Source: Dictyostelium discoideum (taxonomy: Eukaryota). Taken from it: a DNA stretch of 64,000 bases. The DNA lies in contig CM000150.2 of assembly GCA_000004695.1 (NCBI GenBank), positions 2,912,001-2,976,000 of the forward strand. Direction: 5' to 3'. A model generated the notes under the pieces. It was not told where the DNA came from. It was given only the letters and a program-made list of their open reading frames with translations, and ran no database searches. Of this stretch, positions 1,781 to 47,512 are shown piece by piece (positions within the stretch are counted from its first letter, which is position 1; every line of letters begins with the position of its first letter). The position numbers and the translations under genes were made by a program.

Positions 1781-4700
1781 ATGATAAATAAAATTTCTCG
1801 TTTTAAAATATTATTATTGTTTATTTTTATTATTTCATTGACATGTGCTCAAGATGGTAAGTTTTTAATTATTTTCTTTTTTATAAAACATTTGCAAATA
1901 TTGACTTTTTTTTTGAAAAAAAAAAAAAAAAAAAAAAAATTTTAGAGGAATTAATATCAACACCTGAAGGGTATTACGATTTAAAACGGTTTAAAAGATT
2001 TCAACACTATAAAAATATCCAACCCAATGAAGAAGCAGGATATACAGATTTATATTATCCAGATGTTTGTAAAAATGCTATAAGGAATAGAGATGGAGCT
2101 CCAACATTTAATCAGAGAAGCTTTCCAGGTTATACAGGAGTATTCGACACTTTACTAATAACAAAGGGTATTTATCATTGTAAAATTCATAAAAATACAT
2201 CATTTTGAAAAACTTAACATTAACATTTCACCATTATCATTTCATTCAATCAAAGGTACCAATATGACATTGGATTCAACCGGTTTCCTTACTGGTCTGG
2301 GTATCTGGTCACTCTTGACTTTATGTGTTGAAGGAAATTTAACGGTACTTTATAATCCAGATGAATTTTCTTTCGTACCTGTTCATAGGTTAGTTATACT
2401 ACCAGGTGGAACTATAACATCCCATGCAAATTCATTTCTATTCTGGGATACTTACCAAGTTGATGAGAATTTTCAAGAAGAATTAAACAAAAGAGTAAAG
2501 ATTGATCCTTTTAATTTTTTCCCTGGTCTACTAGTCTTGGGAGGAAATTTAAATTTATTTGGTAATAGTCAATTGACTTATACTGCTAAACGATTGAACG
2601 ATACTACATTGGAACTATCAACTCCATTTTTAAATATGAAATTTCTATGGAATAAATATATAATTACAATCTTTACAGAATCAATACCACAAGGTGATGA
2701 TTGTCTTTTTAATATGGATTCAGATAAAAGAACTTTTTACTTAATTAAAACCAACTATGGTACTTGCAATCCATTACGGGAAACAGATAAACTCATGAAA
2801 GTAGTAATCTCATACAACCGATATGAGGATAATTACTCAAGCTATATATCTCTTTTTTCAGATTATTATGGTTTCGAACCAAATGAAGCTTCTATTTTTA
2901 TAACAGGTGATTCAAATGTCTATATTGAAAATTATCTTATTAAAAATTTAGGCAAAACAAAAAATAATGCATACAGTGATACAAAATTAATATTTTCACC
3001 AAATAATACAAGTGAAGTTATAGGGTTTATAAATGGTACCAATCAAAGATTTAGAAGTTCTTTATATATAGAGTTTTCAAATAATGTTATCATTAAAAAT
3101 TGTGTAATTATAGAATCTTCTTCAGAAACAAGATCACCGTTAGTATTTTTTGGTTCAAACGTATATTTATCAGATAATTTAATTTCAAGTAAATCTGGTT
3201 CAAGTTTAATAGCACAATATGGAACTGAAAATATTCAATCTATAAATAATTTTTATTTTCAAAAAGGTGTTTCACATCAAACTGCCTCTCAAATATTAAA
3301 TCCAATTAATATGGATTTTGGAAATGAAGGAAATGGCATTTATTCAGTATCACCAAATCTTTTATCAAGTGATGATTTTTTTATTGGTCAAAATTATTCA
3401 ATTACTTTTAACTTTATTGCCAATAGGTCAAAAATTACTGGTTTTGATCAAGATTGTTATGCACCATGTTTTAGTGATTCAATCAATTTTTCAAATAAAA
3501 TTCAGTATCCTGTAGATTTTAAAATTTTTAATCCAAAGTTTTTACCAACAAATAATACCAATAGCGATTGGTATATTTTAAATATAAATGATAATGGAAA
3601 TCAACCAGGTACCTATTATACAGTAAAAAATTTAACAACTTTAGATCCCGTACAGTTTTCATTGGATAATAGCGCTTTATCCTTTTTAGGTCTAGAAGCA
3701 AGTGAAAATTTTAAAATGAATGGTAATGCCAAAAGATTGGATATTGTTAATTCAATTATCAGTTCAAAAGCTTTAACCAACCAACAACAAATAATTTCAA
3801 AAGTTTCATCATCAGCTATTAGCTTTAAAAATTCTTATATATACAGTAAATTAGGTCAACAAATTACACCTATAGATAATCAGATTTATGGATCATTAAT
3901 TACACCATTTTATTATAATGATTCAGATATTTTAAATCAAGTTAAAATTTTATCAATTTTTCCCAATGTCCCTTTTCAAATTGTATCAGGTTCTATATTA
4001 AATGTTAGCATAAACCTTCAAATTATTTCAACGGCTGATATTTCATGCACTTTCTCTTCAGATAATTCTACTTTTAGTACAACAATTTTGGTTAACCCAT
4101 CAGACGGAAGTTGTGTTTTACCACTTGTTTTTGAAAAAGAAGGTTATTTTAATTTAAAAGTCACATTAAAGATTTCAACATCAAAGGATTATTATTATAT
4201 AGTTGATTTTCCAAAGATTACAGTATATAATGAATATTTATTTTATTCAGGATGGGTAATGATTGATTCAAGCACAGATGAATTTCTATTTGAAGGTAAA
4301 ATATTTAAATCAGGTTGCCAACAACAGGTATTAGGTAATTGTACAATATCAACAAATTCAAAGTTTATAAATGGCTTGCCAAATGTAACAGAAACAGATG
4401 AACTTAATAGATTATTTTCAAGTGGTATAACATCAATCAATCCATATGAACCTGTGACAATTACAATACCAATTGATAAAGAATCAAAAAAGAATCAAAT
4501 CCAATTATTTTTTACTCACCAACCAATTGATATAGAATATAGTCTATTATCAATATATGTAGAAAATCAACCAATATTCCTTTTAGAACAATTACAAAGT
4601 GGTTTAGGTTCAACATTTAAAAATTTAACATTTAATTATGAAAATTCAAAATCACTAGAAATAATCAACATTTCTTTCACAACAAGAGGTGATATCTATT

Positions 4701-5675
4701 TAACTTCAATGGCGGTTTATTCATCAGCCATCCCAATAATCGTTACACCAACACCAACATCAACAACATCAACACCAACACCAACATCAACAACAACATC
4801 AACACCAATTCCGACAACAACACCTACAACAACACCAAAAACATCAAAAACAACCTCCAAAAACAAATTAAAAATTGCTTTACCAATTTGCCTTTTTGCT
4901 CTTTTGGTTGCTGTTGGAGTTTTAATATGTTTTATTTTCAGAAAAAAAAAACAAAAGAAACAAAAATTAGATAATAATATGGAGGATGGAAGTGAGATGT
5001 CTTCAATTAAAATTAAAAAAGAAAATTATAATTCTTTTAACAAGTTTAAAGAGTCAACAGTATTTAAAAACGATGATTTTAAAAATTATTCCAATCCAAC
5101 CGAAACAACAATTTATAGCACTTCCGATTCACTTTTAAACTTTGTTGGCTCTGACTTTTTAAATTACTCTGACCCAAACATCCCCTTATCCTTTAGTAAA
5201 AATATTTTAGAATTTGGATTAAAAGGTTCAAAATGCGATATCAATACCTTCCTTTCCGATTCTTTACGAATAACAAATAACTCTAATATTATATTATGTA
5301 TTTGTACAGTTCTTCCAAGAAATGACTCTGGTGAAGTAAGAATTTTTTGTTTTTTTATTATTATTATAATGAATTTAATTAACTAATCAATAATGAATTT
5401 TTTTTTCAGGTAAATGTTAGTCCAGATTCTTTTGAATTAGATCCAAATCAATCAAGAGAGATAGAATTTTCTTTAAAGTTAAATTGCACAACAAGAGTAG
5501 GTTGAATTTTTATAATTGAATTATTATAATTTAGTTAATATATATACTAACTGCACATCTATTTATATCCTAGTTTTTTGAAAGATTTGCTATTGAGGCT
5601 AGACATACTCACAGTTTCAAGTCAATTCACACTCACCTTTTCATTCATGTTGAATCTAAGATTTCCTCTAAAGTA

Positions 5676-5713
<38 letters not shown>

Positions 5714-6690
5714 GATTTTAACTTAACTTTTCTTTAGTTGGATATAAAAGAGATTGAAGTTAAAGAATTGATTTCACAAAATAATTTATCAACTGTTAAT
5801 ATAGCAAATTATAGAGGTTTACAAGTTGTTTTGAGAAAGATTAAAACTCATAGCGCAAATTACACCAAAACTTACTCTCAAGCAATCAAAAAATTCTACA
5901 CAGAAATGGATATACTCTCAAAGTTAAAAAACAAAAATATTGTTTCATTTATTGGTTGCACTCACGACTCTTCTCACCTTTGGATTGTTACTGAATATGC
6001 ACCATTGGGATCTCTTAGTTCTCTTATCCATCAAAAGAAAGAAAAACTTTCATTAATTCAAAAAGTCAAGTAAGTAAAAAAAAAAAAAACAATAATATTA
6101 TAATTTAGTTCTTTTTTCTAATATTATTAATAGGTTAATGTTAGATACAGCAAAGGGGTGTGAATTTCTACACTCAAATGATATTACGAATTGTAATATA
6201 AAATCAAATAATTTATTACTCTTTTCAACAATGGAAAAAGATGATGTTTGTGTAAAAATTTCAGATTTTGGTATAAAAAGTAATTATTATTATTTTTTAA
6301 ACAATTGTTATTTTTTATACAATGATTATTTCTAACTTTTTACAAAAAAAAAAAAATAAATAAATAAAAATAGAATTTGAAGTACAAAACCAAAATGAAA
6401 AAGAAATTTTTAAAGATGAAAAAGATCAAAAGCTAATTGATGTTTATGAATTTGGAATTACATTCTATGAAACAATGCTTGAAGAAACTCCAGAAAACCT
6501 ATCTAATTTAATATTGGAAGGTGAGAGACCAACTCTTGATTTGGAAAAATTAGATGCAGACATTAGAAACATAATTGAAAGATGCTGGAACCAAAACAAA
6601 AGGTCAACATTTTCAGAGATTAGTATTTCACTAAAAGAAAAATATACAAAATTGTTGGAGAAAAATAATGAATTAATACAAGAGAATTAA
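1781..6690 (+). CDS. Receptor-like membrane protein, paralog A: signal peptide, beta-helix-like extracellular domain, Thr/Pro mucin-like stalk, one transmembrane helix, cytoplasmic degenerate (pseudo)kinase domain
   Basis: Eight exons inferred: 1781-1856, 1946-2167, 2256-5335, 5410-5496, 5574-5672, 5738-6069, 6134-6279, 6374-6690. Splice phases check out and the exons align with paralog C. The signal peptide is [23 protein letters not shown]. Repeated 'GxSNVxIxN' units resemble a parallel beta-helix. The stalk is [31 protein letters not shown] and the TM helix is [22 protein letters not shown]. The kinase-like region keeps VVLRKIK and ISDFG but has no Gly loop, has HRDLKPDN replaced by NCNIKSNN, and has no APE segment. 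Confidence 0.7.
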
Positions 6691-6699
6691 TTTAAAAAC

Positions 6700-6960
6700 T
6701 AACAATAAAAACAAGATAATTTATTATTATCTATGAAATTAGAAATATTTTTTTTTTTTAAATTATTGTTAATATTATTTGGATTACTACAAATGATATT
6801 AAAATAGAGATAGTAGATTTAGAGTTAATAGTAGGTGAAGCTGCAATTAAGTGTTAAACACTATTATTATTTGTTGTAGTTGTTGTCGATTTACTTGATT
6901 TTACAACTGGTTGGAACTCCAGATGTTGTACCGTTTGTAATGGAACAAGGAAAATAAAAA
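6700..6960 (-). pseudogene. Truncated 3' remnant of a GPI-anchored paralog (gene D-like), stranded after a segmental duplication
   Basis: 6661-6960 is about 90% identical to 10020-10330, which is the 3' UTR of the kinase gene plus the last ~80 codons and hydrophobic C-terminus of the minus-strand gene 10116-13271. No upstream body is present. Confidence 0.6.
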
Positions 6961-7137
6961 ATAAGATATTAACAAATGTTTTTATTGAAGATAATTTTGG
7001 TAAAAACCAATTAAAATTTTTTTTTTCTTTTTTTCAATCTCTTAGAAATATGCCTTATTTTTTTTTTTTTTTTTGGATGGCATTCGTTTTTTTTTTTTTG
7101 GAAGACATTTTTTTTTTTTTTCTTATATTCAACAAAA

Positions 7138-10050
7138 TGAAATTAGGACAAAGGATATTTATTTTGATATGCTTAGTTATCAACTCTTTCTCTAATTGTA
7201 AGTCAACAATTAATTAAATATTATTCATTTTTTTATTAAAAAAAAAAAAAAGACTAAAAAAAAAAAAAAAAAAGGCAGTCTTGTGGTTTCACCAAATGGT
7301 TATTATAACATTTATCGAGAAAATAATTTTGGGAATATTTTAAATTTAAAGCCAACAGCAGAAAACAAATTACAAGATTCATATTATCCAGGTGTTTGTA
7401 GCAATGCAGGAAAAAATAAAGATGGTGTGACTAGTTTTTTAATATCCTCTTTCTCTATTTTTTTTTATAAATTACATCAACGTTATTGTTACAAAAGGTA
7501 TGTAAAATTTTATTTTAAATAGAATCATATTATGAAATATAAAATATTAACCAAATGCAATTAATTAACCAATTAGGTTCACATATGGTATTGGGAGATT
7601 TGGAATATTCTAAAATGAGTAATGTTAGAACTTTATTGAATATAGTTTGTGTTGAAGGCTCATTATTATTTTCAACACAAAGTGTTTTATATATGAGTGT
7701 CTTGGTAATGTTACCTGGTGGTAGTTTTGAATGTTTAGATTGCACAATTCGTTTTCGTGAACTACATCCAGCAAGCTCTCAGATCGATCCATTTGGTTTT
7801 TTCCCTGGTGTACTTGCTTTAGGTGGCTCGTTATCTCTTATTGGGAAGCAAAAAACTACATATTCTGCGACCAATATTGGTGGAAATATATTAGAGGTTC
7901 CAGATCTTTCAACATTAGATAGTTTCAATGGTTACAGTTTATCAATATTTAGTGAATCATTTCCTTTGGGAAAATCTTCAACCTTTTCCCATTATTTAAA
8001 TCGAATAAGTGTATTAGATTTGGTTATTCCGAAAACAGATAAAAATATAAGAGTCTTCTTTAATCCAAATTTTTCATTTTTCAACTCAGACAAAATCAGA
8101 TACCGCTTCAATTCATATCACAGGAAATACCAATGTATATAGAAAATTTTTACATCAATTCTTTTGGAAAGACTTCAAATGATCAATATAGCGATACAGA
8201 ATTGGTATTCTCACCTGATGATCCAAATTTAATTACAGAGTTTATAAATGGTAACAAAGATTTAGAAATTCATTATATATAGAGCATTCAAATAATGTTA
8301 CTATAAAAAATAGCGTTATACTTGAAACAAAAGAAACAAGATCACCATTAGTAATTTTTGGTTCAAATGTAAATATATCAGGTAATATAATATCAAGTAA
8401 TTCTGGTTCAAGTATTACAGGATTTGATAAAGATTGCTATTCACCATGCTATAATGATTCGATAAGAGTTTCAAGTAAAGTTCAACATTTATTAGTTCAT
8501 CAAATTACTCTGAGTTTTCTTTTTAGAATCAGCGAAACAGGTAGTAAACAAAGTTCAATTTATAAAATAAAAAATTCAAATTTAAGTTATCCAATTTCAG
8601 TATTATTAGAAAACAACGCATTTATATTAGATAATGTTTATGGTTTTGGTGATTTTAGTAATAATGGTATGATTAAAAGATTTGATATAATAAACTCAAC
8701 ATTAGATCCTTCTGCATCATCATCAATAAGTTTAAACAATTTTTCAAAAGCAATTTGTATTCAAAACTCATTTATGGATTTTAAATCATTTCAAAAACAA
8801 AACAATCAATTATTACACCTTACCTATACTATTTCGAAAATACAATGAATCTTATAAAAGTATCAAAAATGTATCCAAATGTAAACCATCAAATTTTAGC
8901 AGGTACAGTACTAAATATGGGTATTGAAATTATAATTATAGCACCATTATTTGGGAAAATGGATTGCATATTTGAAGATGAAAGTAGTGTTCAAACAATA
9001 CCATTTGATAAATCAAGTAATTCATGTGTTTTACCATACACATTTAAAAATGAAGGTTCATTTAATGTACGAGTTACATTATCACTAAATAACTCTGGAG
9101 ATAGTGTATTTCAAGTATATTTTCCAATGGTTACAGTATTTAATATATTCATTTTATTCAGGATGGGCAATGATTGATTCAAATATAGAAAAAGAAATAA
9201 TAATAGATGGTAATATATTTAAAAAAGGTTGTCAACAACAGGTATTAGGTAATTGTACAATATCAACAAATTCAAAGTTAATAACAGGTTTACCAAATGT
9301 GACAGAATCAGATGAACTTAATAGATTATTTTCAAGTGGTATAACATCTATCAACCCATATGAACATGTAACAATAACAATACCAATTGATAAAGAATCA
9401 AAAAAGAATCAAATCCAATTATTTTTCACACTAACCAATTGATATAGAATCTAGTCTATTATCAATATATGTAGAAAATCAACCAATATTCCTTTTAGAA
9501 CCATTACAAAGTAATTTAGATTCAACATTTAAAAACTTAACATTTCATTATGAAAATTTAAAATCTCAAGAAATAATCAACATATCTTTCACAACAAGAG
9601 GTGATATCTATTTAACTTCAATGGCGGTTTATTCATCAGCCATACCAATAATCGTTACACCAACACCAAAAACATCAAAAACTACCTCCAAAAACAAATT
9701 AAAAATCGCTTTACCGATTTGCCTTTTTGCTCTTTTGGTTGCTGTTGGAGTTTTAATATGTTTTATTTTAAGAAAAAAAAAAAACAAAAATTAACTAATA
9801 TTATGGAAGATGGAAGTGAGATGTCTTCAATTAAAATTAGTGTTTCACCTTTATCCAACTTGGGATAAAAAATGTTTTTTTTTTTTTTTTTTGATTACTA
9901 CCTTTTCAGTCCTTATTTTTTTTTGCGATCCAAAAAAAAAATTAAAAAATAAAATTCGGATTACAAATTAAAAAGGAATTTGTTTATCTTAAAGAAAAAT
10001 ATATAAAACTGTTTGGGAAAAGTAATGAATTAACACAAGAGAATTATTTT
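7138..10050 (+). pseudogene. Mosaic, frameshifted pseudogene of the receptor-like family, paralog B
   Basis: The signal-peptide exon MKLGQRIFILICLVINSFSNC at 7138-7198 and a second exon at 7269-7500 are intact. The main body is then broken into ORFs 7555-8142, 8845-9177 and 9104-9442 by frameshifts and deletions. Its 5' half resembles paralog C and 8845-9440 is near-identical to C. Its 3' part (9420-9840) is near-identical to paralog A but has lost the Thr/Pro stalk. Only a short kinase-domain tail remnant survives at 9960-10050. Confidence 0.65.
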
Positions 10051-10115
10051 AAAACTAACAATAAAAACAAGATAATTTATTATTATCTATGAAATTAGAA
10101 ATATTTTTTTTTTTT

Positions 10116-13100
10116 TTAAATTATTGTTAATATTATTTGGATTACTACAAATGATATTAAAATAGAGATAGTGGATTTAGAGTTAATAATAGGTGAAGCT
10201 GCGCTTAAGTGTTCACCACTATTATTATTTGTTGTAGTTGTTGTCGAAGAGTCTGTTGATTTACTTGATGTTTCAACTGGTGCGCCAGTTGTTGTACCGC
10301 TTGTAATTGGAATTGAATAAGGAATTGTATTATTTGAAAAAACTTCAATACCGCACATTGGTATTGAGTACTTGAGATTATCAGATGCCCACTCAATCAT
10401 GAGTGTAACATCAGTTGAACCACTATTCCAATAGAATGGCCCAAATTTTTGATATTTTTGATAAGGTGAAGAAGGTCTTGAGTATGGATCTTGATATTTG
10501 CCATTAATCTTAATTGTGAAAATGGGTAGTGAGTTGACGATGTTGGCTCCAGTGTAATCTGCATTATAAGAGTAGATGAAAAACTTGTATTCTGCATTTG
10601 CTGGTAAAGTTAAATTTACTGAACTTTTAATTCCTAATGTAACATCATTTGATAAATAAGATGTTAACATTGATACTTCATCAGTTGCGCTTCTGATAGT
10701 TCCAGTTGTAGATTCAGTTACCGTTGATGGAATTGGTGATACTTTACTGTATTTACCAGTTACCTTACATATTCCACTAATCCAACCACATTTAGTCCAT
10801 TGGTTGCCTAAAATTGATAGTGCTTTGGAAGATGAACTAAAATCTGGAGTTAAATCTATACCAAGGTAAAACAATTGAACACCAGAATCAACTATATAGG
10901 TTTGAGCATAATATGGTCCAACAATAGATGGATCATTTGGAGCATATAATAGATTGGATGAAACAATAACTGTATAAGGTCCATTAGCTTTTGGGAAATT
11001 GGCAACCTTGGAAATAGGAGAAGCACTTGAAGGGTAATCTATTGATTGAATTACTTCGTTTACAATATATTCTATATTTTGATTTGAACCTAAAAGGTAA
11101 TCGACGTTTGGTTTAAATGATAATAAAAGTTGATTTGAAGTTATTGAATTTACCATTGGGTTAAAATTATATAATGGATATAAACCAAGGACCCCTTCAA
11201 ATATATCTAATTTTGTACCATTTACATTAGAAAGGTATAGCTGTGTGGTATATTTCTTTAAGAATAAAGATGAACTAGAATAATGAGAGAAGAGAGAGTT
11301 TTTAATTGATAAATAACCACACGAAAATGTTTCAGAAAAGAAAACATAATTTCCTTTGGCAATGGAATTAACAATTGATATCGCATTGTATTTGCCATTT
11401 AGAGTGTTTGGAGCATTAGTAAATACTTTCTCATTTGAAGATAGAGAGTTTGCAATATATGGAGAATCATAAAAGATTTCAATGTTTGCTTGGTTTCCGG
11501 TTGAACCAAGAGTTAATGATGGTTGCTGTCGAATATACCAACCAAATTTTATATTAATTTTTAGTGGGGGTTGAGTTCCAATTGGATATCTAACACGTAC
11601 TTCAGTTTCACCTGCAAAGAAATTACTCAAAAAAACAACATTGTTCCAAACATTATTAGTTTTGTAATCAGCAGTGTTATCTTGAGTTAATCCAGAGTGT
11701 ATACCTATCAGTTTATCTGATGCTAAACCCAATGTTGAATATCTACTTTGAATTGGGATTACATGAATTGCACCTCCTTTGAATTTACCTTCAAATGCAT
11801 TTCCTTCATATGTAGAGTAGGGTGATGATGTTATTATACCAACATTTATATAATCTATGTCTGGATAGGTTCTATATGATGAAACTATGCTGGTATCCGA
11901 GTATAAAGAAATGAACCCATTATAGCTAATATCAAATTGCTCTGTTCCATATAATAATGAAATACCACTGATACCTTTTCTCAATGCAAATGCATTACCA
12001 GATATTGTACCAAATGAACGTTTAGCACCAATAAAAGCTCTTGGGATTTCACTTTCTCTTAAAGTATCAATGTAGTCATAATCCATGAACATATTATTCT
12101 TAATATTTACTGCTTCTTTATTATGTAATAAAGTTATTGGATATCTATCAGGTATATTTTTTCCATATTTAAGAACATTATAGTTTGAATTTAATATATT
12201 ATCATCGAGAACATTGCTTGTTGTATGTCCAATATCATAAAAAACACTGTTTTGAATATTAACAATCGATCCAAGAGTAAAAGTCATTGAACTATTATAA
12301 AACCCTTTGATAAATACATTTTTAGACCAAGGTCTCATTACAATATAACCACTTCCACCAAATATTTCTCCTATTATTTCACTTGGGGATGCTGCGATAG
12401 CACTAGTATAATATTGATCCATTGAATAATTAATATTGTAATTTGGATCATAACTTCCACTCATTCTAAATAAAGGTAATCCTGGACTTGAATAAGAAAA
12501 AGGAGTACGGAGGAATGAACCTCCATAAGAACCAGATTTTGATGTGTTCCTTCCTGCCCATATTGACTCAGTGTTAAAACCAATAATGTTAACTGTACCG
12601 CCCAAGGAGATAAAAGGAGATGTTTGAAGAGGATCCCAAGATGGGAAATTCCAATATTCAAAAGCGGGTAAAAATATTGTGTGATTAAAACTTGAAGATG
12701 GTTTTGATTCAAATACACCAGTTGGGAATATAATTGTTTTGGAGACTGTGTAATATGTATTAGCATTTGGATCAAGAACCAATTTTCCTTTAATAATAAT
12801 TGTATAAAGCCAACTGACTCTTCCATAAAACGTAACTGTTACTCCTTCTGGAATAACCAAAACATTTTTTAACAATAATAAACTTCCTGAAGGGTTTTCG
12901 TTAATGTTTATTGGTGGTGTAAATAAATCAGTGGTAAGAAAGTTTGTGTCACTATATATTGTGCAACTTGATTTGAAAGTGTATTTTACTGTATTTGGAT
13001 TTGACTCCAAGTCTGGATAAAAATCACCTTTGTAGTTTGGGTTTTCTGGATAAAAATTAATCTTGAAATGTGGCTGCCCATTAATATTTACACGTGGAGA

Positions 13101-13271
13101 GTTCCAATCGAATGAATAAAGTTCTTGAGAGTAAGTTTCTTATTTTTTTAAATTTATTAAGATTAGTAAATCTATAGGGAAAAAAAAATAAAAAATAAAA
13201 ACAGAAAATTTTAAATAAAAGTATATACTCTGATATAATATAATGACCAGCGTAACTAATAACTTTATCAT
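10116..13271 (-). CDS. Secreted, probably GPI-anchored paralog D of the receptor-like family, with no kinase domain
   Basis: Two exons: 13271-13229 (MIKLLVTLVIILYQ signal peptide, phase 1, GTATAT donor) and 13138-10116. The extracellular domain shares blocks with A and C (for example FISLGGTVNIIGFN versus ITLGGSLSLLGKQ). It ends in a Ser/Thr-rich stretch plus the hydrophobic tail STISILISFVVIQIILTII, which is typical of a GPI signal. There is no TM helix or cytoplasmic domain. Confidence 0.65.
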
Positions 13272-13959
13272 TGTAAAGAATAAAATTAATTTCTTTAAAG
13301 CGAAATCTGAAAATCAGATATTGTAAATTGTCAAAGGAAATTAAATTAGTTATTTCTTTTCATTTAAATAATATAATTAAGGGGTATAGACTATATGTTT
13401 GAAAGGCATCTTTAAAATTAAAGGAAAAAATGAAGAATTAGTATATCATTTTAAATAACTGTTCAATATTTAAATGAAAAAAATATATTTGAATTTTGGT
13501 TTTTTAATTTTTAGTTTTTAAATTTTTTTTTATTTTAAAAACAACTTTTTTTAAAATAAAAAATTGCAATTATTAACCACCTATAGCAGAAATGAATATT
13601 TCCAGTTTTTAAACGTTTTTTTTTTTATTTTTTTTTTTTTTATTATATTTTTCTACATGATTTTGTGTATTTTTATGTTTTTTTTTTTTTATTTAAATTT
13701 TGAAAATTTAATTTTCACTTTTTTTTTTTTTTTTTTTTTTTATCTTGAAATTTTTTTATTTTGTTTTAAGATCAAAAAAAAAAAAAAAAAAAAAAAAATG
13801 TTAATTCAATGATTATAAACATCATTTCTGAAATTTAATTTATTTCTTTCCTATGAAATAATAATTAAACACCACACCCCAACCATTAATTTTTTTATTT
13901 TTATTTTTATTTTTTTTTTCAAAATCTTCGCATTTTTGATTTTTTTTTTCTGAAATCTT

Positions 13960-13994
<35 letters not shown>

Positions 13995-14041
13995 CACATA
14001 CGACATTTTTTTTTTTTTTTTCTTATATATTGCTCCACAAG

Positions 14042-17000
14042 ATGAAATTAGAACAAAGGATATTTTTTTTAATATGCCTAGTTATCAACTCTTTCTCTAA
14101 TTGTAAGTCTACAATAAATTTATTTAATATTTTTCACATTTTTACTAACCTTTTAAAATAAAAAATAAAAAAATAAAAAATAAAATAATAAAATAATAAA
14201 AAAAAGGTAGTCTTTTGGTTGCTCCAGATGGTTATTATAACATTTACCGAGAAAATAAAATTGAAAATATTTTAAATTTAAAACCAAATGGTAACAAATC
14301 ACAAGATTCATATTATCCAGATGTGTGTAGTAAAGCGGTAAAAAATAAAGAAGGTGTAAAAAGTTTTATCTTATCTTCATTCCCTCTTTCAACTAAAGAG
14401 TATGCTAACGTTATTGTAACAAAGGGTATGTAGATTTTATTTTTATTTTTTATAGTAAATTATAGTATATTTATAAATATTAACAATAAGCAATTAATTC
14501 CTAGGTTCACATATGACATTGGGTGATGGAGAATATCATCAAATATTTAATATCAATAGATTTTTGAATATAGTTTGTGTTGAGGGTTCACTTGTATTTA
14601 GTACAAAAGATGTTGTATATATGAGTGCGTTGGTAATATTACCTGGTGGTAATTTTGAATGTATAGATTGCACCATCAAATTTCGAGATCTATATCCAAC
14701 CAACTCATTAATTGACCCATTTGGTTTTTTACCTGGAATTATTACTTTGGGAGGTTCATTATCTCTTTTAGGAAAGCAAAAAACTGTGTATAGTGCAGTT
14801 TTAATAGATGAAAATATATTAGAGGTTCAGGATATTTCATCACTAGATATTTTCAATGGTTATAGTTTATTTATTTTTAGCGAATCATTTCCTTTGGGAA
14901 AGGCATCAACTTTTACTTTTAATTCAAATCAAATAAAAGTTTTGGAAATCAAAATACCAAAAACAGATAAAAGCATTAGAGTATTTTTTTATTCAAGATT
15001 TTCTACTTTCTCAACTTCAACTACTGCTTCAATTCATATCACAGGTAACTCAAATGTGCATATCGAAAACTTTTATATAGACTCTTTTGGGAGGACAACA
15101 AACGATCAATATAGCGATACAGAATTGATTTTCTCTCAAGATGATCCAAATTTAATTACTGGGTTTATAAATGGTAGCAATCAAAGATTTAGAAGTTCTT
15201 TATATATAGAGCATTCAAATAATGTTACCATAAAAAATAGTGTTATACTTGAAAATAGAGGAGAAACAAGATCACCATTAATATTCTTTGGTTCAAATGT
15301 AAATATATCAGGTAATATAATATCAAGTAAATCTGGCTCAAGTTTAATAGCGCAATATGGAACTGAAAATATTCAATCAACAAATAATTATTATTCATTA
15401 TCTTTACCACTTTTAAAATCATTAAATTCAACTCTTGATAGTATGGATTATGGAAATGAAGGAAATGGTATTTTTTCGATATCGCCAAAAATAAATTCTA
15501 TTAATGATATATTCAATGGGCAAATAATAGCAATCAATCATATAATATTATCAGATAGATCAAGTATTACAGGATTTGATAAAGATTGCTATTCACCATG
15601 CTATAATGATTCGATAAGAGTTTCAAGTAAAGTTCAACATTCAGTGGAATTTAAAATAACAGGATCAACATTTATTAGTTCATCAAATTACTCTGAAAGT
15701 AGTTTTCTTTTTAGAATCAGCGAAACAGGTAGTAAACAAAGTTCATTTTATAAAATAATAAATTCAAATTTAAGTTATCCAATTTCAGTATTGTTAGAAA
15801 ACAATGCATTTATATTAGATAATGTTTATGGTTTTGGTAATTTTACAATTAATGGTCTTATTAAAAGATTGGATATAATAAACTCAACATTAGATCCTTC
15901 TGTAACATCATCAATAAGTTTAAGCAATTTTTCAAAAGCAATTAGTATTCAAAATTCATTTATGGATTATAGATCATTTCAAAAACAAAACAATCAAATC
16001 TATGGATCAATTATTACACCTTACCTCTACTATTTCGAAAATACAATGAATCTTATAAAAGTATCAAAAATGTATCCAAATGTAAACCATCAAATTTTAG
16101 CAGGTACAGTACTAAATATGGGTATTGAAATTATAATTATAGCACCATTATTTGGGAAAATGGATTGCATATTTGAAGATGAAAGTGGTATTCAAACAAT
16201 ACCATTTAATAAATCAAGTAATTCATGTGTTTTACCATACTTATTTAAAAATGAAGGCTCATTTAATGTACGAGTTACATTATCACTAACGAAATCTTTA
16301 GATAATATTATATTTCAAGTATATTTTCCAATGGTTACAGTATTTAATATATATTCATTTTATTCAGGATGGGCAATGATTGATTCAAATATAGAAAAAG
16401 AAATAATAATAGATGGTAATATATTTAAAAAAGGTTGTCAACAACAGGTATTAGGTAATTGTACAATATCAACAAATTCAAAGTTAATAACAGGTTTACC
16501 AAGTGTAACAGAATCAGACAAACTTAATAGACTATTTTCAAGTGGTATAACATCTATCAACCCATATGAACCTGTAACAATAACAATACCAATTGATAAA
16601 GAATCAAAAAAGAATCAAATCCAATTATTTTTCACTCACCAACCAATTGATATAGAAACCAGTCTATTATCAATATATGTAGAGAATCAACCAATATTCC
16701 TTTTAGAACCATTACAAAGTAATTTAGATTCAACATTTAAAAATTTAACATTTCATTATGAAAATTCAAAATCATTAGAAAAAATCAAAATTACATTTAT
16801 AACAAGAGGCGATATTTATTTAACATCTACAGCGATTTATTCATCAACTAACCAACCTATATATAACGAAGTTATTGGTATAAATGAACAATTAAATATA
16901 TTAGCAATTGTACTACCAATAACGATTTCATTGTTTGCAGCGGCATCAATATTGGCTGGTTATTTAGTAATTAAAAAATATAAAAAACCAAACATGTATT

Positions 17001-18199
17001 ATAATAGAAATACCAATGGAAATATCGGAATGAAGGTTTTCTCAACAAAATTTAAAAGAAGACCCAAAAAGGTAATACCACTTTCAATCCCATTAAGTAC
17101 AAATAGAATTACAAAGAAATCATTACAATCTTTAGATTCAATGGCTGAAAACCCTGTGATATTACTTTCCATTCCAGAATTGGAGAAAGCCAATGAACCA
17201 GAATTTAATCCTGAAAAAACTTTCTTACAAGAATCAGAATTATTAGATTTACCAACACCAAAGGTAGAACCAGAAGAGCCAAGAATTAATATTGTTCCCC
17301 TCCCTCGTTTTCCAACCGTATATAAAAAAGAAGATAACGATAAATTATTAAAAGAATTGAATATAACTGGTCCTATCACCTCTGAAAATATTGAATCATT
17401 CTTTGAAGTTGATGTTGGTTTGCCATCTTTAATAATAAAGAATGAATCTGAAATCATTCTACAAGAAATTGATTATATTGAAACTGGTGAAATTCAAGAA
17501 ATGGAAGGTAGCTTTTTGGAAGATAAATCAACTGATACAACCGTTATAGTAACAAAAAGTGATGGTTTACCTAAATTTTTTCAAACCAAAGTCTTTTCCA
17601 AACGATTTAATGATATATCCAAATTTGATAATGATTTCTTTGATCTAAAGGAATACATAGTTGAACATCAAGAAGAATCTTTTGAAATACCTTTTATGAC
17701 CTCGGAAGATGAAGTAGATGAAACCAAAATTAATATAATAGACTTTTTACTCAGTCCCAAATCTAATAAAGTTGCACTAAATATGTATTTAAAATCATTT
17801 CAAAATAGAAACCATAAACTTTGTTATGGAAAGTATGGTTCAAATAAAAATTCTATTCTTGTTATTGAAGGCACATCTTATTATTATGATTGTACAGATG
17901 TTAGGTTACCAATATCAACACCTCGTAGTAATCTTAATTTTGGAATAACAGATGGTAATAAATGTATAGTTGATAGAAAATATAGAGAAAGGTTACAATA
18001 TATAAATGTTTATAGTGAACCATTTAGAATTTATACTCTTTTTCCAGATAGTAATGATAATGTAACAATTACAACTTCAGAATGTTGTAAAGAAATAGAC
18101 CCATTTGGTTCATTAGATGTAGATATATTTGTAACTTTAAAAACAACAACCAAAGTAAGTATTTTAAAAAAAAAAAAAAAAAAAAAAGAATTATAAACT

Positions 18200-18230
<31 letters not shown>

Positions 18231-19347
18231 CATAAAAAAAACATAATAATAGTTTAATGAAAAAGTTACAATTCGTTATGAAACTGATGATAAAGAATTA
18301 GCATTTTCAACATTTGTTTATTTAAATTTAGAGAGTCAAGTATCATCAAAAATTGATTTTGATGAAATAGTTCTCGAAAAATATTTATCTGAAGGTTCAT
18401 TTGGAGTTGTATATAGTGCTATTTGGAGATCATCATCAGTTGCGGTCAAATTATTCAAACATCATTATTCTAAAGATGAAATTGATAAAGAAACATCAAT
18501 TTTATCAAAAATAAAACATCCAAATATAGTTTCATTCATTGGAAGTTTAAATTTTTTAAATACATATGGTATTGTAATTGATTATCATCCAAGAGGTTCT
18601 TTAAATTATTATACTCGTAATCAAAATATTAAACTATCAATGGTACAAAATATTAGGTATGTAATAATTAAAATATTATTATTTATTATTATTATATTAT
18701 TTATTAATTTTTTTTTTTTTTTTAGGATTTCATTGGATATTTCAAGAGCTTGTTCATTTCTTCATAAAAATGGTATTATTCATCGAGATTTAAAACCAGA
18801 TAATGTTTTAATTGTTTCATTTGATCCAGATTCTTCAATTTGCGCAAAGATATCAGATTTTGGTACTTGCAGAGGTATGTTTTTTTTTTTTTTTTTTTTT
18901 GATATATTCAAATTTTTTTTTTTTTTTTTGAATTCAACTAACTATTTTTGTTTTAAATTAAAAAAAGAAATTAATGGAAAGCATGAATTAAACTCAAAAG
19001 CTGGAACAACACGTTATATGAGTCCAGAAATTTTAGAAGGTCTTCCATATACATATTCTACAGATGTTTATTCTTTTGCAATCCTTTTCTTTGAATTACT
19101 TTCCGGAAGAGTACCATTTAGAGAAATTCCAAAAAGAGAAATTCCAAGATTTGTACGTTTAGGAACAAGACCTCGTTTAGATCAAGATGTATTTGCCGAT
19201 AATGATATATCATTAATTTTATTAGCTTGTTGGAATCCAAATCCTCGTGGTAGACCAACATTTGATACTTTAATAGATTTATTAGAAAAATTATTAAAAA
19301 AATATAAAGAAAGAGCAAAAAGAAATAAAAAAAATCAAAATCAATAA
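14042..19347 (+). CDS. Receptor-like kinase, paralog C: signal peptide, beta-helix-like extracellular domain, transmembrane helix, long cytoplasmic linker, intact Ser/Thr-type (TKL-like) kinase domain
   Basis: Six exons: 14042-14102, 14207-14425, 14505-18154, 18253-18656, 18726-18874, 18968-19347. The TM helix is LAIVLPITISLFAAASILAGYLVI. The kinase has GSFGVVYSA, VAVK, HRDLKPDN, DFG and TTRYMSPE, with introns inside the catalytic domain. Confidence 0.75.
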
Positions 19348-19464: not shown

Positions 19465-20514
19465 TTAATTACAAAAAGGAATTTTTAAAGTTGATCTTAA
19501 AATTAAATTACTTAATTGAACAATTACAACTTCAGGTTTTATTATTGGAATAAAATGAGTTGAATAAATTGAAAATTGAAAAGAGTTTTTTGATAATTTT
19601 GATAATTGATGTTGTCTTGAAACCCAAGATTCTGTATCATTAGAATTTGAAACAACCACCATTGGTAAATTACCTAATGGATTATTTGGAATTGATGAAG
19701 AATTAAATAATTCATCTAATCTTTGAGAACTTGATGTTAATGTAGACAATTCTTGATGTAAAGCTTTTAACATATTTTGATTTGGGTTTGTAATAATTTT
19801 TTGAGTAATTTCAATTGATGGAAATATTAATTTCGAATTATTTGTAAACCAACCTTGATCTTGAGTTAACATACCCTGACCACATATTAATTTAAACATA
19901 TCATTTGGTAAACTAATTACTGATTCTAATTGTTGAATTTGATTTTCAAGTTGACTATTGAATAAAGGATCGATATAATTTCTAAATGAACTATCAATAG
20001 TTAATATACCTTTTATTAATTGTGGATATTTCATAGAAAACATTTGAGCATTTAAACCACCATATGACCAACCAACATAAAAAAATCTTTTATTTTTTAA
20101 AAATGGTATTAAATCAATGGATTGTTTTAGCATTGAAACAAAATTTTCAACGCCAAGTGGTTCAGGTGAAAGATCTGACCATCCATAACCATATCTATCA
20201 AAGAAACATGCACTCTCGATACCCATTGCAGACATTACTTCTTTTTTTGACATTAATTCAATAACATTACCATATGCGGAAGAAAAGAAAGGAAATCCGG
20301 AATCAAAAATTGCAATTTCACCCTTTGAAAAATTTGGATCTTGATTTTTATAACATCTAAAATGCATTTTTAAACCATTAACCATTGGAAAGTAACTTAC
20401 ACCTTTATCATTTTTTCCAATTAAATTTGGTAATGGATAATTTTCATTCATTTGATTATTTGAAAAACAATATTTAATATTACAAATTAAAAATAAAAAT
20501 AAAATAATTATCAT
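19465..20514 (-). CDS. Secreted alpha/beta-hydrolase-fold protein
   Basis: ATG at 20514 with N-terminal signal peptide MIIILFLFLICNIKYCFS. GWSYGG nucleophile elbow (G-x-S-x-G). Read as a single exon. Confidence 0.6.
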   Translation of the reverse strand: MIIILFLFLICNIKYCFSNNQMNENYPLPNLIGKNDKGVSYFPMVNGLKMHFRCYKNQDPNFSKGEIAIFDSGFPFFSSAYGNVIELMSKKEVMSAMGIESACFFDRYGYGWSDLSPEPLGVENFVSMLKQSIDLIPFLKNKRFFYVGWSYGGLNAQMFSMKYPQLIKGILTIDSSFRNYIDPLFNSQLENQIQQLESVISLPNDMFKLICGQGMLTQDQGWFTNNSKLIFPSIEITQKIITNPNQNMLKALHQELSTLTSSSQRLDELFNSSSIPNNPLGNLPMVVVSNSNDTESWVSRQHQLSKLSKNSFQFSIYSTHFIPIIKPEVVIVQLSNLILRSTLKIPFCN

Positions 20515-21203
20515 TTTTTTTTTTTTATTACAAAAAAAAAAAAAAAAAAAATTAATATACAAATAAAATAAAATAAATAAATAAATAAATAAAATAAATA
20601 AAATTAATATATATAAATAAAAATTAATATATAGATGATTATATATATAAAATATACAAAAATAAATAAATTTTTAATTTAAACAATTACATAAAAATAA
20701 ATTAATTAAAATTAGTAATAATAAAAAAATAAATTTTAGATATTTTTTTTTTTTTTTTAAATAATAGATAAAATTTTAAAAATAAAAAAATAAATTATTA
20801 ATAATAATAAAAAAAAAAAAAAAAAAAAAAGAAAAAAAACTATTAATAGAATCTTTTAAATTATTTTGAACAGAAAGATTAAACAATGATTTTTTTATTA
20901 TTGTTATTGTTGGAAAGATTTATTTTTTTTTTTTTTAAAATTTGAGTGCATCTATTTTTGAAAATTTATGATTTTTTTTTTATTTATAAATTTACACAAA
21001 TATATTGATATAAAATGAAATTTAATTTGAATCATAATACTACCCCTTTAATAATTTTTTTTTTTTTTTTATTATCAGGGAATGATGATGCAATAAATAA
21101 CATTTAAAAAATTGGTGAGACCAGAAATAAAAAATTGAGAAACAAAACAGTGTATCTGTTAATGGGTGAGTGTGGTTTAAATTATTACTGTTAATATTTA
21201 TTT

Positions 21204-42279: not shown

Positions 42280-42993
42280 ATGTCATTATGTAATAGATCA
42301 AATTTAGAAGCAATTGTTAAAGGTATTCAAACCAATAAAATATTAGAAGTATTTGATAAATATTATCATGATGAAATTGTAATGTATGAAAATGGTGATT
42401 CAACAAATCGTGTTGGTAAAGCTGCAAATCGTATAGCTGAAGAATCTTTTGTAAATAATTCAATTATTCATGAAGCAAGATTAATAAAGTTAATCGCTGA
42501 TGGTGACAATACAGCATATGAAATGTTCATGGATTTCACAAATAGTGGACACCGTATCAAAGAAAATCAATGGGCATTCCAACATTGGTCAAATGGTTTA
42601 GTCATTAAAGAAGAGTTTGTCAAAATTAAAACACCACCAACACCAGAACCAACAAATAATATAAAATCAAATTTAGAAGCAATTATTGAAGGTACTCGAG
42701 ATAATAGAATATTAGAAGTATTCGATAAATATTATCATCCAGATGTAATTATGTATGAAAAAGGTGATCCAACTAATCGTGTTGGTAAAGCTGCTAATCG
42801 TAAAGCTAAAGAATCTTTTGTAAAAAAAGGAAGAATCAATGAAGCAAAAGTATTACAATTAATAATTGATGGTAATGATACAGCATATCAAATGTATATT
42901 GATTTTACATATTGCGGAAATCGTATTCAAAAGACTCAATGGGCTGTTCAACAATGGTCAAATGGTTTAGTTATCAAGGAAGAGTTTTATTAA
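42280..42993 (+). CDS. SnoaL/NTF2-like fold protein with an internal 2x tandem duplication; divergent copy 1 of a 5-member array
   Basis: 237 aa. The two halves (about 110 aa each) are about 65% identical to each other and share NLEAI(V/I)KGIQ...ILEVFDKYYH...VIMYE(N/K)GD...NRVGKAANR...DGDNTAYEMF...QW..Q.WSNGLVIKEEF. This is consistent with SnoaL_2/DUF4440-type alpha+beta barrels. Confidence 0.55.
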   Translation: MSLCNRSNLEAIVKGIQTNKILEVFDKYYHDEIVMYENGDSTNRVGKAANRIAEESFVNNSIIHEARLIKLIADGDNTAYEMFMDFTNSGHRIKENQWAFQHWSNGLVIKEEFVKIKTPPTPEPTNNIKSNLEAIIEGTRDNRILEVFDKYYHPDVIMYEKGDPTNRVGKAANRKAKESFVKKGRINEAKVLQLIIDGNDTAYQMYIDFTYCGNRIQKTQWAVQQWSNGLVIKEEFY

Positions 42994-43283
42994 ACATTTT
43001 TTTAAAAAATGTTCACAACCCTAAAAATAAAGAATATACATATTTTTTATCAACTTATTTAAATATATTTTTAATTATTAATTTCATTGATTTTATATTT
43101 ATGATTTAATTATTTATCATTCATTTTTTGTAATTCTTTTTTATTCTGAGTAAGAACAAGAGGAATATATTTTATATAAAAGAGATTTAAAAAAAAAAAA
43201 AAAAAAATAAAACAAAAAAAAATTTTTTTATAAAAAAATCTAATAAAAATTAAAAAAAAGAATTTTATTTTTATATTTAAAGA

Positions 43284-44203
43284 ATGCCCAAAACTTCAAA
43301 TTGGTCTCCAGCTGAAGATAATTATATTAAAAGCGAATTATTAAAAAAACCTTCTTTGGTTGCCGACGATATTCTCAATAATTTAAATATTAATTTCCAA
43401 CAAAAAAGAACCAAAACTGCGTTAACCCAAAGGATAAAGAAAATTTCATCAGATTTAAAAAGTCACACAATCACCGTTCAAGTCCCTTCTGCATCTACTG
43501 CACAGACAATACCAACAATAACACCACCACAACCACAATTACCAAACCCAAATGACAATGAGGAAGAATATTCAGATCCATCAGAATCGGAGTCAGATGA
43601 AGATTCAAAATCCAACTCTAGCCTCAAAAGAAAGTCACCACTAAAGAAACAAAAACTACATGATTTGAGTAAAGCTTACCAAGGTAAACTATTATTATTA
43701 TTATTATTATTTTTAATTAATTAATTAAATTCTCTCTTTTTTTATTTATAAACAAAACTATAGAACCAACTGAACATCTTCATACTCCATTGGAATTCTT
43801 CGGCACTCAGAGATTAAAATTAAATGATCCCATCATTTTACCATTAGAAGATGGATCGTTTAAACTTGTTTTTGGTTATCCACCTTTTGATATTGAAATA
43901 ATTGAGGTTAAATATTTGGGTGATGGTAGAATTGGAATAAGATACCATGTCTTATTACCATCAAGAGAAGATCTAGAAACAATAGTTGGTTATGATTATT
44001 CATCCAGATGGTATATTAAATATGATTGTCTACCACTCAAAACCACAAGCTTTCACTTTCTTCATCACTCTGCCTCTACAAAAGAACAAGAAAAATATCA
44101 AAGTTGTAAAATCGATATTGAAAAAGATATAAAATATTTTTCAATAACAGTTACTCCAAAAGCAGTTGAGAAAATAGATTTAGATGAATGGATTGACTCC
44201 TAA
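43284..44203 (+). CDS. Small Myb/SANT-like domain protein
   Basis: Exons 43284-43683 and 43764-44203 with a phase-1 intron. The N-terminus NWSPAEDNYIKSELLKK is Myb-like, followed by an acidic Ser-rich linker and a basic KRK patch (nuclear-localisation-like). Confidence 0.5.
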
Positions 44204-44742
44204 AATAAATATAAATTAATTTAAAAAAAAAATAAAAAAAATAAAAAAAATAAAAAAAAACAATTTTTTTTTTTTTTTTGCCAAATTTTTTTTTTTTTTT
44301 TTTTTTTATTTTTTTTTCATTTCCAGCATCTCTATTTTTAAATTTTTCTTTAATGTCAAATTTGAATGTTTGAAAAATAATACTAAATAAAAAACAAAAA
44401 AAAATATTCAAGATTTAGTTCATTTATTTTATTTGATTAAAAAAAAAAAATAGAAATTAAATCTTTCAGTTTATTCTTAGTTTTTTTTTTTTTTTTTTTT
44501 TTAAATCTCTTGTGGTCCCATAAAATTTTTTTTAAAAACTTTTTTTAAGGCCTTCAGGTGTTTTTCATTTTTTTTCATTTTTTTTTTTCAAATCAAAATT
44601 TATTTATAAACACAAGAATGGTTGAGAACGACAACCAGATAACAATAAAAACTATAAAATGTAAAAAAAAATTTATTCATTCATTAAATTATCAAATTAA
44701 AAATACATATAAAGCAAACAAATAAATAAACAAATAAATAAA

Positions 44743-46177: not shown

Positions 46178-46222
<45 letters not shown>

Positions 46223-46223
46223 A

Positions 46224-47477: not shown

Positions 47478-47512
<35 letters not shown>

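Follow-up and report, generated by a model that had tools for sequence, protein, structure and literature searches.

Why are a receptor kinase with a complete catalytic domain, a relative with a degenerate one and a membrane-tethered protein without any kinase encoded side by side in Dictyostelium discoideum? The question is raised by a 64,000-nucleotide stretch of chromosome 1 of strain AX4 (the window; G+C content 18-32%), whose positions 1781 to 19347 carry, in this order, gdt6 (+), a gene relic called D' (-), a gdt pseudogene called B (+), DG1041 (-) and gdt4 (+). A first-pass annotation made from the letters alone had described this cluster as a locally amplified, fast-evolving family of beta-helix receptors, with gdt6 as gene A, DG1041 as gene D and gdt4 as gene C. 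Exon models and self-alignment agree with it on gene content, order and coordinates throughout. The arrangement of the cluster, however, is a conserved triad of genes rather than the outcome of local amplification.

Gdt4 and Gdt6 belong to the GDT family of tyrosine kinase-like (TKL) receptor-like kinases and are type-I membrane proteins. Goldberg et al. (2006) described nine TKL kinases with classic receptor architecture, and six GDT receptor kinases (Gdt1, Gdt2, Gdt4, Gdt6, Gdt8, Gdt9) with a common 'gdt_ex' ectodomain (PMC1420674). Their table gives Gdt2 (VAVK / HRDLKPEN / DFG), Gdt4 (VAVK / HRDLKPDN / DFG) and Gdt9 (VAIK / HRDLKPDN / DFG) as active, Gdt1 (ALLK / QKTLRARN / DLT) and Gdt6 ('R instead of K72') as inactive, Gdt8 as questionable (HGD, lacks G52), and Gdt3_ps as a pseudogene (kinase column 'a'). 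The family, its receptor architecture, its shared ectodomain and the active and inactive calls for Gdt4 and Gdt6 are thus already known, and the earlier impression that such receptors had not been described was mistaken. What appears to be new is that the DG1041 family consists of paralogues of the Gdt ectodomain without a kinase, that the triad exists in triplicate, and that there are two deeply diverged haplotypes. Literature searches on gdt4, gdt6, DG1041 and the gene identifiers, with the primary Gdt1 and Gdt2 papers outside their scope, returned nothing on fold, DG1041 or gene arrangement; in the papers searched we did not find the fold of gdt_ex, GPI-anchored (glycosylphosphatidylinositol-anchored) or secreted paralogues of the DG1041 type, triads or the haplotype block described.

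A conserved triad and its recent offshoots

Gene A encodes Gdt6 and gene C Gdt4, each with a signal peptide, the Gdt ectodomain (gdt_ex), a single transmembrane (TM) helix and a C-terminal TKL kinase domain, which is a pseudokinase in Gdt6 and of active type, after a long cytoplasmic region, in Gdt4. gdt6 (DDB_G0270544, Q55DV2, 1452 residues, 'Probable inactive serine/threonine-protein kinase gdt6') occupies positions 1781-6690 (+) in eight exons (1781-1856, 1946-2167, 2256-5335, 5410-5496, 5574-5672, 5738-6069, 6134-6279, 6374-6690). gdt4 (DDB_G0270550, Q55DU7, 1620 residues, 'Probable serine/threonine-protein kinase gdt4') occupies 14042-19347 (+) in six (14042-14102, 14207-14425, 14505-18154, 18253-18656, 18726-18874, 18968-19347). 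Spliced mapping with GT-AG introns reproduces the 1620-residue protein and the 1452-residue RefSeq protein (P0029) exactly, so that position 1781 marks the ATG of gdt6 and 19347 the stop codon of gdt4, and both sequences match the corresponding rows of the kinome supplement. The open reading frame (ORF) at 14513-18196 is 100% identical to DDB_G0270550 of AX4; in gdt4, one exon encodes the ectodomain and the TM helix together with some 400 residues of the cytoplasmic region. Direct reading of the sequence, with mapped coordinates, places the TM helices at residues 973-994 of Gdt6 (4874-4939, +) and 890-916 of Gdt4 (16892-16972, +).

Pfam detects kinase domains in both proteins, at residues 1350-1598 of Gdt4 (18370-19278, +, introns inside; 169.6 bits) and at residues 1214-1431 of Gdt6 (5813-6624, +, introns inside; PK_Tyr_Ser-Thr, 97.6 bits). 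Motif alignment supports the proposed juxtaposition of an active kinase and a pseudokinase. SEGSFG, VAVK, HRDLKPDN, DFG and SPE are all present in Gdt4 and its orthologues, and the solved kinases closest to it are TKL kinases (MLK1, CTR1, TAK1, DLK, Roco4 and LRRK2). In Gdt6, VVLR replaces VAVK, NCNIKSNN replaces HRDLKPDN, the Gly loop reads SQNNLS, DFG is kept, the activation segment is 13 residues shorter and APE is absent. These degenerate motifs are identical in the orthologues of five genomes, so the pseudokinase state is old and conserved; the ratio of nonsynonymous to synonymous divergence (dN/dS; this and all dS values are Nei-Gojobori estimates) is 0.39-0.45 for gdt6, and the pseudokinase appears to be maintained.

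Two further features of the cytoplasmic regions deserve mention. The linker between the TM helix and the kinase of Gdt4 (codons ~751-1200 of the big exon, positions 16750-18100) has a dN/dS of 0.9-1.6 at a dS of only 0.03-0.08 between AX4 and another D. discoideum-group genome (locus L006), and so appears to be under little constraint. N-terminal to the kinase, all Gdt proteins conserve a Cys-containing, beta-rich segment (for example ...LKTTTKF.EK....ES..SSK.D; 18000-18300, residues ~1200-1340, in gdt4; 5150-5700 in gdt6) that has no match in Pfam and may be an uncharacterised cytoplasmic domain.

DG1041 (DDB_G0269126, XP_646033.1, O15733) runs from 10116 to 13271 (-) in two exons (13271-13229 and 13138-10116), and its 1021 residues are identical to XP_646033.1, 'Uncharacterized protein DG1041'. 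A signal peptide (MIKLLVTLVIILYQ) is followed by a G8-like domain and beta-helix, by sandwiches resembling carbohydrate-binding modules (CBMs) and malectin, by a serine/threonine-rich linker and by a GPI-type signal. The tail passes from this linker through SAAS and a short spacer into a 17-residue hydrophobic stretch with nothing beyond it (...GEHLSAASPIINSKSTISILISFVVIQIILTII; mean Kyte-Doolittle value of the last 17 residues ~2.8). In keeping with the GPI-anchored form proposed for gene D, we predict by eye that this C-terminus is a GPI-type signal. The same tail design is found in DG1041 orthologues and in the paralogues at the two further loci described below, while one subgroup of the D family ends directly after the last domain, without a hydrophobic tail, and is presumably secreted.

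The first-pass annotation had taken the ectodomain to be shared by all of these proteins. This is evident for Gdt4 and Gdt6, but for DG1041 it holds at the level of profiles only. BLASTP of DG1041 against gdt4 is not significant (E 0.46), whereas hhalign, given a 21-member Gdt alignment and a 27-member D alignment, joins the two profiles with a probability of 97.5% and an E-value of 5.6e-12; the 762 collinear columns of this match extend from a Cys-containing segment at the N-terminus to the last domain. DG1041 is best regarded as an ancient, remote and kinase-less paralogue of the Gdt ectodomain, recognisable only by profile comparison. One member of the D family, P0093 (ACTFIY_011529, 1901 residues), contains two complete D-family stretches, and is either a tandem pair fused by annotation or a true double-ectodomain protein.

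That the three forms belong together is made more plausible by their recurrence. At three loci (gdt4/DG1041/gdt6, gdt2/DDB_G0269850/gdt8 and gdt3/D-like/gdt5), an active Gdt gene lies head-to-head with a DG1041-like gene, which lies tail-to-tail with a Gdt gene of degenerate kinase. At the first of these, the starts of DG1041 and gdt4 are 770 bp apart, and the intervening region (13272-14041) would be a putative shared divergent promoter. D. firmibasis (L005) has the order hydrolase, gdt4, D, gdt6, with gdt4 and D head-to-head, D and gdt6 tail-to-tail, and no B; in two other D. discoideum-group genomes (L006, L009) the order is gdt4, D, B, gdt6. At the second locus (L001 / L003, with DDB_G0269850 as the AX4 member of the D-like gene), the head-to-head partner (1648 / 1602 residues; SEGTFG, VAVK, HRDLKPEN, DFG) is the Gdt2 orthologue (82-86% identity to the kinome-supplement sequence) and the tail-to-tail partner (1496 / 1499 residues; Gly loop absent, HGD) is the Gdt8 orthologue (81%). 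At the third (L002), the head-to-head partner (GEGTFG, IAIK, HRD, DFG) is Gdt3 (87%, again against the supplement), and the tail-to-tail partner, also without a Gly loop, is 86-87% identical to AX4 gdt5. These assignments draw on the protein sequences of the kinome supplement and on ectodomain identity. Beyond the triads, the D. firmibasis orthologue of gdt9 stands head-to-head with a D-like protein of the secreted type, as a pair only, and an active-type gdt of D. purpureum stands head-to-head with a D-like gene. At the third locus of 'D. cf. discoideum', a DDE_1 transposase-like gene (L002 8335-9673) lies between the gdt3 orthologue and its D-like partner and interrupts the head-to-head promoter region.

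Neighbour-joining trees with bootstrap were built for each position of the triad. The head-to-head genes group as ((gdt4, gdt2) 85, gdt3) 51, the tail-to-tail genes as ((gdt6, gdt8) 75, gdt5 group) 55, and the D family as (((DG1041, locus 2) 94, locus 3) 100, gdt9 partner) 90. Congruence of the three trees is what block duplication of the whole triad predicts, and order and orientation have been kept even though ectodomain identity between paralogous loci is down to 40-50%. Judging from these trees, the ancestral unit is the triad, and it was duplicated as a whole to give the three loci. The same order in D. firmibasis, and the distance between gdt6 and gdt4 (only ~50% identical, with dS near saturation), speak against local amplification as an origin of gdt6, DG1041 and gdt4.

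Local amplification is, however, the right description for B and D', which are the only recent local products. B (7137-9865, +) is, by tblastn and self-BLAST, a chimera with a gdt4-like 5' part and a gdt6-like 3' part. Its stretches 7054-8413 and 8408-9648 match gdt4 at 13957-15343 (77% nucleotide identity) and 15560-16855 (90.7%), and 9025-9682 and 9656-9839 match gdt6 at 4112-4767 (86.5%) and 4825-5015 (91.6%). Compared by tblastn with the intact protein P0006 (957 residues), B of AX4 changes frame in six or more places, contains in-frame stops and has a deletion of ~89 codons, and an independent assembly of the AX2 lineage has only a 459-residue fragment (P0062) predicted at this position. 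Two other D. discoideum genomes have an intact, kinase-less B of 957-960 residues (P0006, P0030), which ends shortly past the TM helix (P0006). B orthologues lie at L006 13285-16330 (intact, 960 residues) and at L009 13470-15907 (733 residues, with internal deletions).

The surroundings of B are duplicated as well. D' (~6757-6945, -, 190 bp) is by self-alignment the remnant of a second DG1041 copy, consisting of the last ~63 codons with an in-frame TAA. Positions 9988-10115 (+) are a relic of the last kinase exon and 3' untranslated region, derived from gdt6 via B and aligning to the gdt6 3' end at 6631-6756. Both belong to a longer match in the same orientation, at 88-90% identity, between 6631-6945 (last gdt6 exon, intergenic sequence and D') and 9988-10312 (gdt6-type last-exon relic downstream of B, intergenic sequence and DG1041 3' end). 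gdt6 and gdt4 have the same orientation and share an 85%-identical membrane-proximal ectodomain stretch (4112-4726 and 16226-16846). From this pattern of duplicated segments we infer that, in the D. discoideum lineage, gdt4 and gdt6 recombined once by unequal crossover in this shared stretch, which gave rise to the order gdt6, D, chimera, D, gdt4. The extra DG1041 copy would afterwards have been deleted down to D', and B would have lost almost all of its cytoplasmic (kinase) exons before decaying further in AX4. A single crossover accounts for the mosaic structure of B, its junction at ~9650-9680, the duplicated segment of gdt6 3' end, intergenic sequence and D 3' end, and the D' remnant. The mosaic pseudogene and the recent rearrangement had been recognised correctly at the outset. 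Other kinase-less, Gdt8-like genes exist: one at L003 21894-23111 (P0017, 948 residues, 95% identical to the ectodomain of the Gdt8 orthologue) and one of 1057 residues at L008 1753-5092. Truncated, TM-only Gdt copies like B thus arise repeatedly.

Fold and relatives of the ectodomain

The first-pass annotation had recognised a beta-helix from repeats of the form G-x-S-N-V-x-I-x-N. The fold has stood up to scrutiny; the literal motif has not, since gdt4 and gdt6 contain it only two or three times and DG1041 lacks it altogether. Pfam gave no Beta_helix match at E up to 1 on gdt4, gdt6, B or DG1041, no PbH1 or malectin match in direct scans of the ectodomains, no GG (PANDER-like) domain in these proteins and no TIG domain on the ectodomains of the cluster; a sequence search of the PDB with the D-family profile returned nothing. 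G8 was detected below threshold in 5 of the 27 D-family members (best E 0.0031); in P0054, for example, residues 109-213 score 13.2 bits against a cut-off of 22.9.

More was gained by searching outwards from the family. Against 1.84 billion representative sequences, HMMER with the D-family profile found 14 full or partial relatives at E <= 1e-30, of which the identified ones are dictyostelid, and ~120 weaker matches over profile positions ~105-440. Nine of the weaker matches were scanned: all nine have G8 above the Pfam cut-off, five have CEMIP_beta-hel and three have Beta_helix (two of them above the cut-off). The D-family profile retrieves G8 / CEMIP_beta-hel proteins at E-values of 1e-17 to 1e-10. 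AlphaFold2, run with family alignments, predicts an all-beta gdt4 ectodomain (predicted local distance difference test score, pLDDT, 69; predicted template modelling score, pTM, 0.60) and gave a better model for DG1041 (pLDDT 78, pTM 0.82). Foldseek with the DG1041 model returns the tandem malectin-like ectodomains of ANXUR1 (E 7e-6) and FERONIA (1e-5) first, and then several CBMs; the TM-scores of the ANXUR1 and FERONIA matches are low (0.27-0.33), so we read this result only as indicating CBM/malectin-like beta-sandwiches after the helix. Among the top structural neighbours are GH28, GH87 and GH110 hydrolases, PL6 lyases, AlgG epimerase and phage depolymerases, and the non-enzymatic beta-helix proteins Vag8, PfbA and pertactin score equally with the enzymes. 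On the strength of the profile retrievals and the predicted models, the Gdt/DG1041 ectodomain is a divergent, G8-like domain plus right-handed beta-helix of the CEMIP/TMEM2/PKHD1 type, followed by CBM/malectin-like sandwiches.

CEMIP (KIAA1199), TMEM2 (CEMIP2) and PKHD1 (fibrocystin) likewise have an extracellular N-terminal G8-like region followed by a right-handed beta-helix. The Dictyostelium proteins differ from them in that their own Pfam G8 matches remain sub-threshold and no GG domain was found. To our knowledge there is no CEMIP or PKHD1 protein with a cytoplasmic kinase, unlike Gdt.

A proposed receptor system and a divergent haplotype block

We infer, with moderate confidence, that Gdt4, Gdt6 and DG1041 are parts of one cell-surface receptor system for a glycan or polymer ligand that feeds into the control of growth and differentiation. 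Gdt4 would be its catalytic subunit and Gdt6 a non-catalytic partner or regulator. DG1041, tethered to the membrane, would serve as co-receptor, decoy or ligand, and the putative shared promoter would co-regulate it with gdt4. The output would act on growth versus differentiation, as reported for Gdt1 and Gdt2, which, according to papers citing the original work, have counted as regulators of the Dictyostelium growth-to-development switch since 2000-2004; the parts of the literature covered by our searches name no ligand or partner for either. Every active Gdt, Gdt2 included, adjoins a gene in which its ectodomain is present in tethered or secreted form, and for three of the four (gdt4, gdt2 and gdt3) a degenerate-kinase paralogue also lies beside that gene; these neighbours are candidate co-receptors, decoys or ligands. 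The combination of G8, beta-helix and CBM-like domains points to a glycan or polymer ligand. This is consistent with a 2021 study, which reported reduced polyphosphate sensitivity of gdt4-null cells and mentioned no previous report on Gdt4 function (PMC8262924).

Known systems offer analogies for such an arrangement. In plants, CrRLK1L receptors (FERONIA, ANXUR) act with LLG/LORELEI proteins by the same logic of a receptor kinase and a GPI-anchored partner. LLG proteins, however, are small and unrelated to the receptor ectodomain, and CrRLK1L proteins have no beta-helix, so the resemblance would be one of analogy and not homology. Pairs of the ErbB2/ErbB3 type likewise combine a catalytically complete receptor with a conserved paralogue that has a kinase fold and has lost its catalytic residues; by analogy, Gdt4 and Gdt6 might form such a pair, with heterodimerisation of Gdt4 with Gdt6 as a hypothetical element.

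Several points weigh against a receptor system built on the triad. The deepest nodes of the Gdt trees have bootstrap values of only 51-55%. D. purpureum lacks a tail-to-tail partner at the locus examined, and the D-like subgroup of L008 is not directly beside a kinase-bearing gdt, the nearby kinase-less Gdt8-like gene being ~5 kb off. The gdt4 ectodomain was modelled with no more than moderate confidence (pLDDT 69), and the beta-helix fold is typical of enzymes, too. Finally, the linkage may have been conserved passively, as a by-product of segmental duplication.

If so, the triads would merely record old segmental duplications, and members of the DG1041 family would act independently, for example as adhesins or matrix proteins. 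We consider this less probable than not, and yet the most serious competitor. Block duplication alone would give exactly the congruent trees that we find, some D-like genes (L008) are not directly paired with a kinase gene, the third member is missing in D. purpureum, and B demonstrates how readily these genes are reshuffled and lost. However, passive linkage sits less easily with the preservation of order and orientation at three paralogous loci whose ectodomains have diverged to 40-50% identity, with the persistence of the head-to-head pair at the gdt9 locus and in D. purpureum, and with the retention of an active and a degenerate kinase in every triad. The same goes for a block of unusual divergence that spans the 5' ends of DG1041 and gdt4 as a single unit.

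This block (11900-15300, delimited by sliding identity) is ~3.3 kb long and reaches from the 5' third of DG1041 across the intergenic region into gdt4, of which it takes in the first ~300 codons; it covers the G8-like, membrane-distal part of both proteins. Between AX4 and L006, identity is 64-79% over ~12.0-15.0 kb and 93-99% over most of 1.8-23 kb, while AX4 and L009 are 92-95% identical inside the block. With the neighbouring alpha/beta-hydrolase gene as local background (dS 0.056), dS reaches 0.97-1.07 in codons 1-300 of the compared exon-2 segment of DG1041 (10119-13010), 0.71 in codons 1-150 and 0.44 in codons 151-300 of the big gdt4 exon, and falls to 0.03-0.14 in the remainder of gdt4. 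Inside the block dN/dS is 0.2-0.3. Of the fast evolution originally attributed to the whole family, there remains this 5' block of DG1041 and gdt4, and what is unusual about it is deep synonymous divergence, not rapid amino-acid change.

The genomes compared were drawn from a 2025 study of ten isolates, which found two isolates to be conspecific with AX2 and two to be possible cryptic species, and in which gdt goes unmentioned (PMC12745789). Our sample of five genomes contains two haplotype classes for DG1041 and three for gdt4. In the N-terminal 250 residues encoded by the gdt4 ORF (residues ~97-346 of the protein), AX4 is 95% identical to the 'D. cf. discoideum' genome ACTFIY and 74% identical to D. 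discoideum ACTFIW, which is the level between AX4 and D. firmibasis; across the remaining gdt4 ectodomain, identity is 92-96% among members of the discoideum group and 72-73% with D. firmibasis. DG1041 behaves likewise (N-terminus 92% versus 70%, C-terminus 91-94%). A three-genome comparison places AX4 and ACTFIY in one class and ACTFIR and ACTFIW in the other, whereas in the flanks ACTFIR is if anything nearer to AX4 than ACTFIY is. ACTFIZ has a third type of gdt4 N-terminus. The 5' end of B in AX4 is of the non-AX4 type (91% identical to P0006 and, at the nucleotide level, 88% to gdt4 of L006 but no more than 77% to that of AX4), so the haplotype split is older than the origin of B. At the gdt2 locus, the two genomes compared showed no comparable divergent coding block. 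The block may be due to long-lived alleles, to introgression from a lineage outside the sample, or to earlier exchange with a lost D' or B copy.

The first of these causes would fit a polymorphic recognition pair, in which DG1041 and Gdt4 are matched ligand and receptor, much like TgrC1 and TgrB1, with ancient alleles of their membrane-distal domains kept by balancing selection and a role in kin, mate or partner discrimination. Its attraction lies in the head-to-head position of the two genes, in a block that covers both N-terminal regions with a divergence between allele classes equal to that from D. firmibasis, in the fact that AX4 pairs with the genome of a 'D. cf. discoideum' within the block and not in the flanks, in the third type of ACTFIZ, and in the age of the split relative to B. 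We nevertheless think it unlikely: five genomes yield only two or three haplotype classes, dN/dS in the block gives no sign of diversifying selection, the paralogous gdt2 locus has no such block, gene conversion with a B or D' copy or introgression from an unsampled species could mimic the pattern, the Gdt phenotypes on record concern the timing of growth and differentiation and not recognition, and the ten-genome study is silent on gdt (PMC12745789). The fullest version of the idea is similarly doubtful. It would make DG1041 and Gdt4 a co-evolving, allele-matched pair of ligand and receptor kinase, with ancient G8-like haplotypes shared across D. discoideum and its cryptic sisters, and the Gdt2 and Gdt3 triads non-polymorphic sensors of cell density or of surface cues derived from self at the growth-to-development switch.

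The TgrB1/TgrC1 genes share with DG1041/gdt4 the head-to-head arrangement of genes for single-pass or anchored surface proteins, the duplication of pairs as units and the sharp differences between strains. They differ in fold (IPT/TIG in Tgr, beta-helix and CBM-like domains here); moreover, our case shows far fewer alleles, no rise in dN/dS and no known recognition phenotype, and the partners are paralogous to each other, one of them with a kinase. If balancing selection on the block were true, a model organism for kin recognition would possess a second polymorphic surface system; if the pair were allele-matched, it would be a second recognition system, based on a fold unlike that of Tgr and coupled directly to a kinase. 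As a separate observation, B is intact in two genomes with the non-AX4 DG1041/gdt4 haplotype and degraded in two with the AX4 haplotype, a match that, with four genomes, could be coincidence.

That the beta-helices of Gdt and DG1041 are surface polysaccharide lyases or hydrolases acting on bacterial or matrix glycans is very improbable in our view: the carbohydrate-active enzymes among the top structural neighbours, the CBM-like domains after the helix and the link of related G8/CEMIP-type proteins to hyaluronan degradation, as stated in the portions of the literature consulted, speak for it, but identity to any enzyme is 8-14% with no catalytic motif identified, non-enzymatic Vag8, PfbA and pertactin score equally, fusion to a cytoplasmic kinase suggests signalling, and even the claim that the TMEM2 ectodomain acts as a hyaluronidase is in dispute, to judge from part of one source (PMC10206443). 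Should neither the receptor system that we favour nor any of the other leads hold, the region would be an annotated cluster of a known lineage-specific kinase family.

Neighbouring genes

The remainder of the 64-kb window contains no further gdt or D copies. The alpha/beta-hydrolase gene adjoining gdt4 (19465-20562, -) is 99.1% identical between AX4 and L006, with a dN/dS of 0.06. A 1691-residue ORF that adjoins the cluster was tested as a relative of the large neighbours at the other loci and proved unrelated to them.

Farther along, positions 42280-50071 (+) hold a tandem array of five ORFs of 236-237 residues (starts at 42280, 44743, 46224, 47764 and 49358). The two that were scanned have two SnoaL-like (NTF2-fold) domains each, and the array is a separate, locally amplified group of genes. 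Beside it, at 50520-54907 (-), are three successive ORFs of 472, 663 and 315 residues. Pfam has no match for the 472-residue ORF; the 663-residue ORF (51981-53972, -) contains an endonuclease/exonuclease/phosphatase domain and a reverse transcriptase, and the three together look like a retrotransposon of the type without long terminal repeats (non-LTR).

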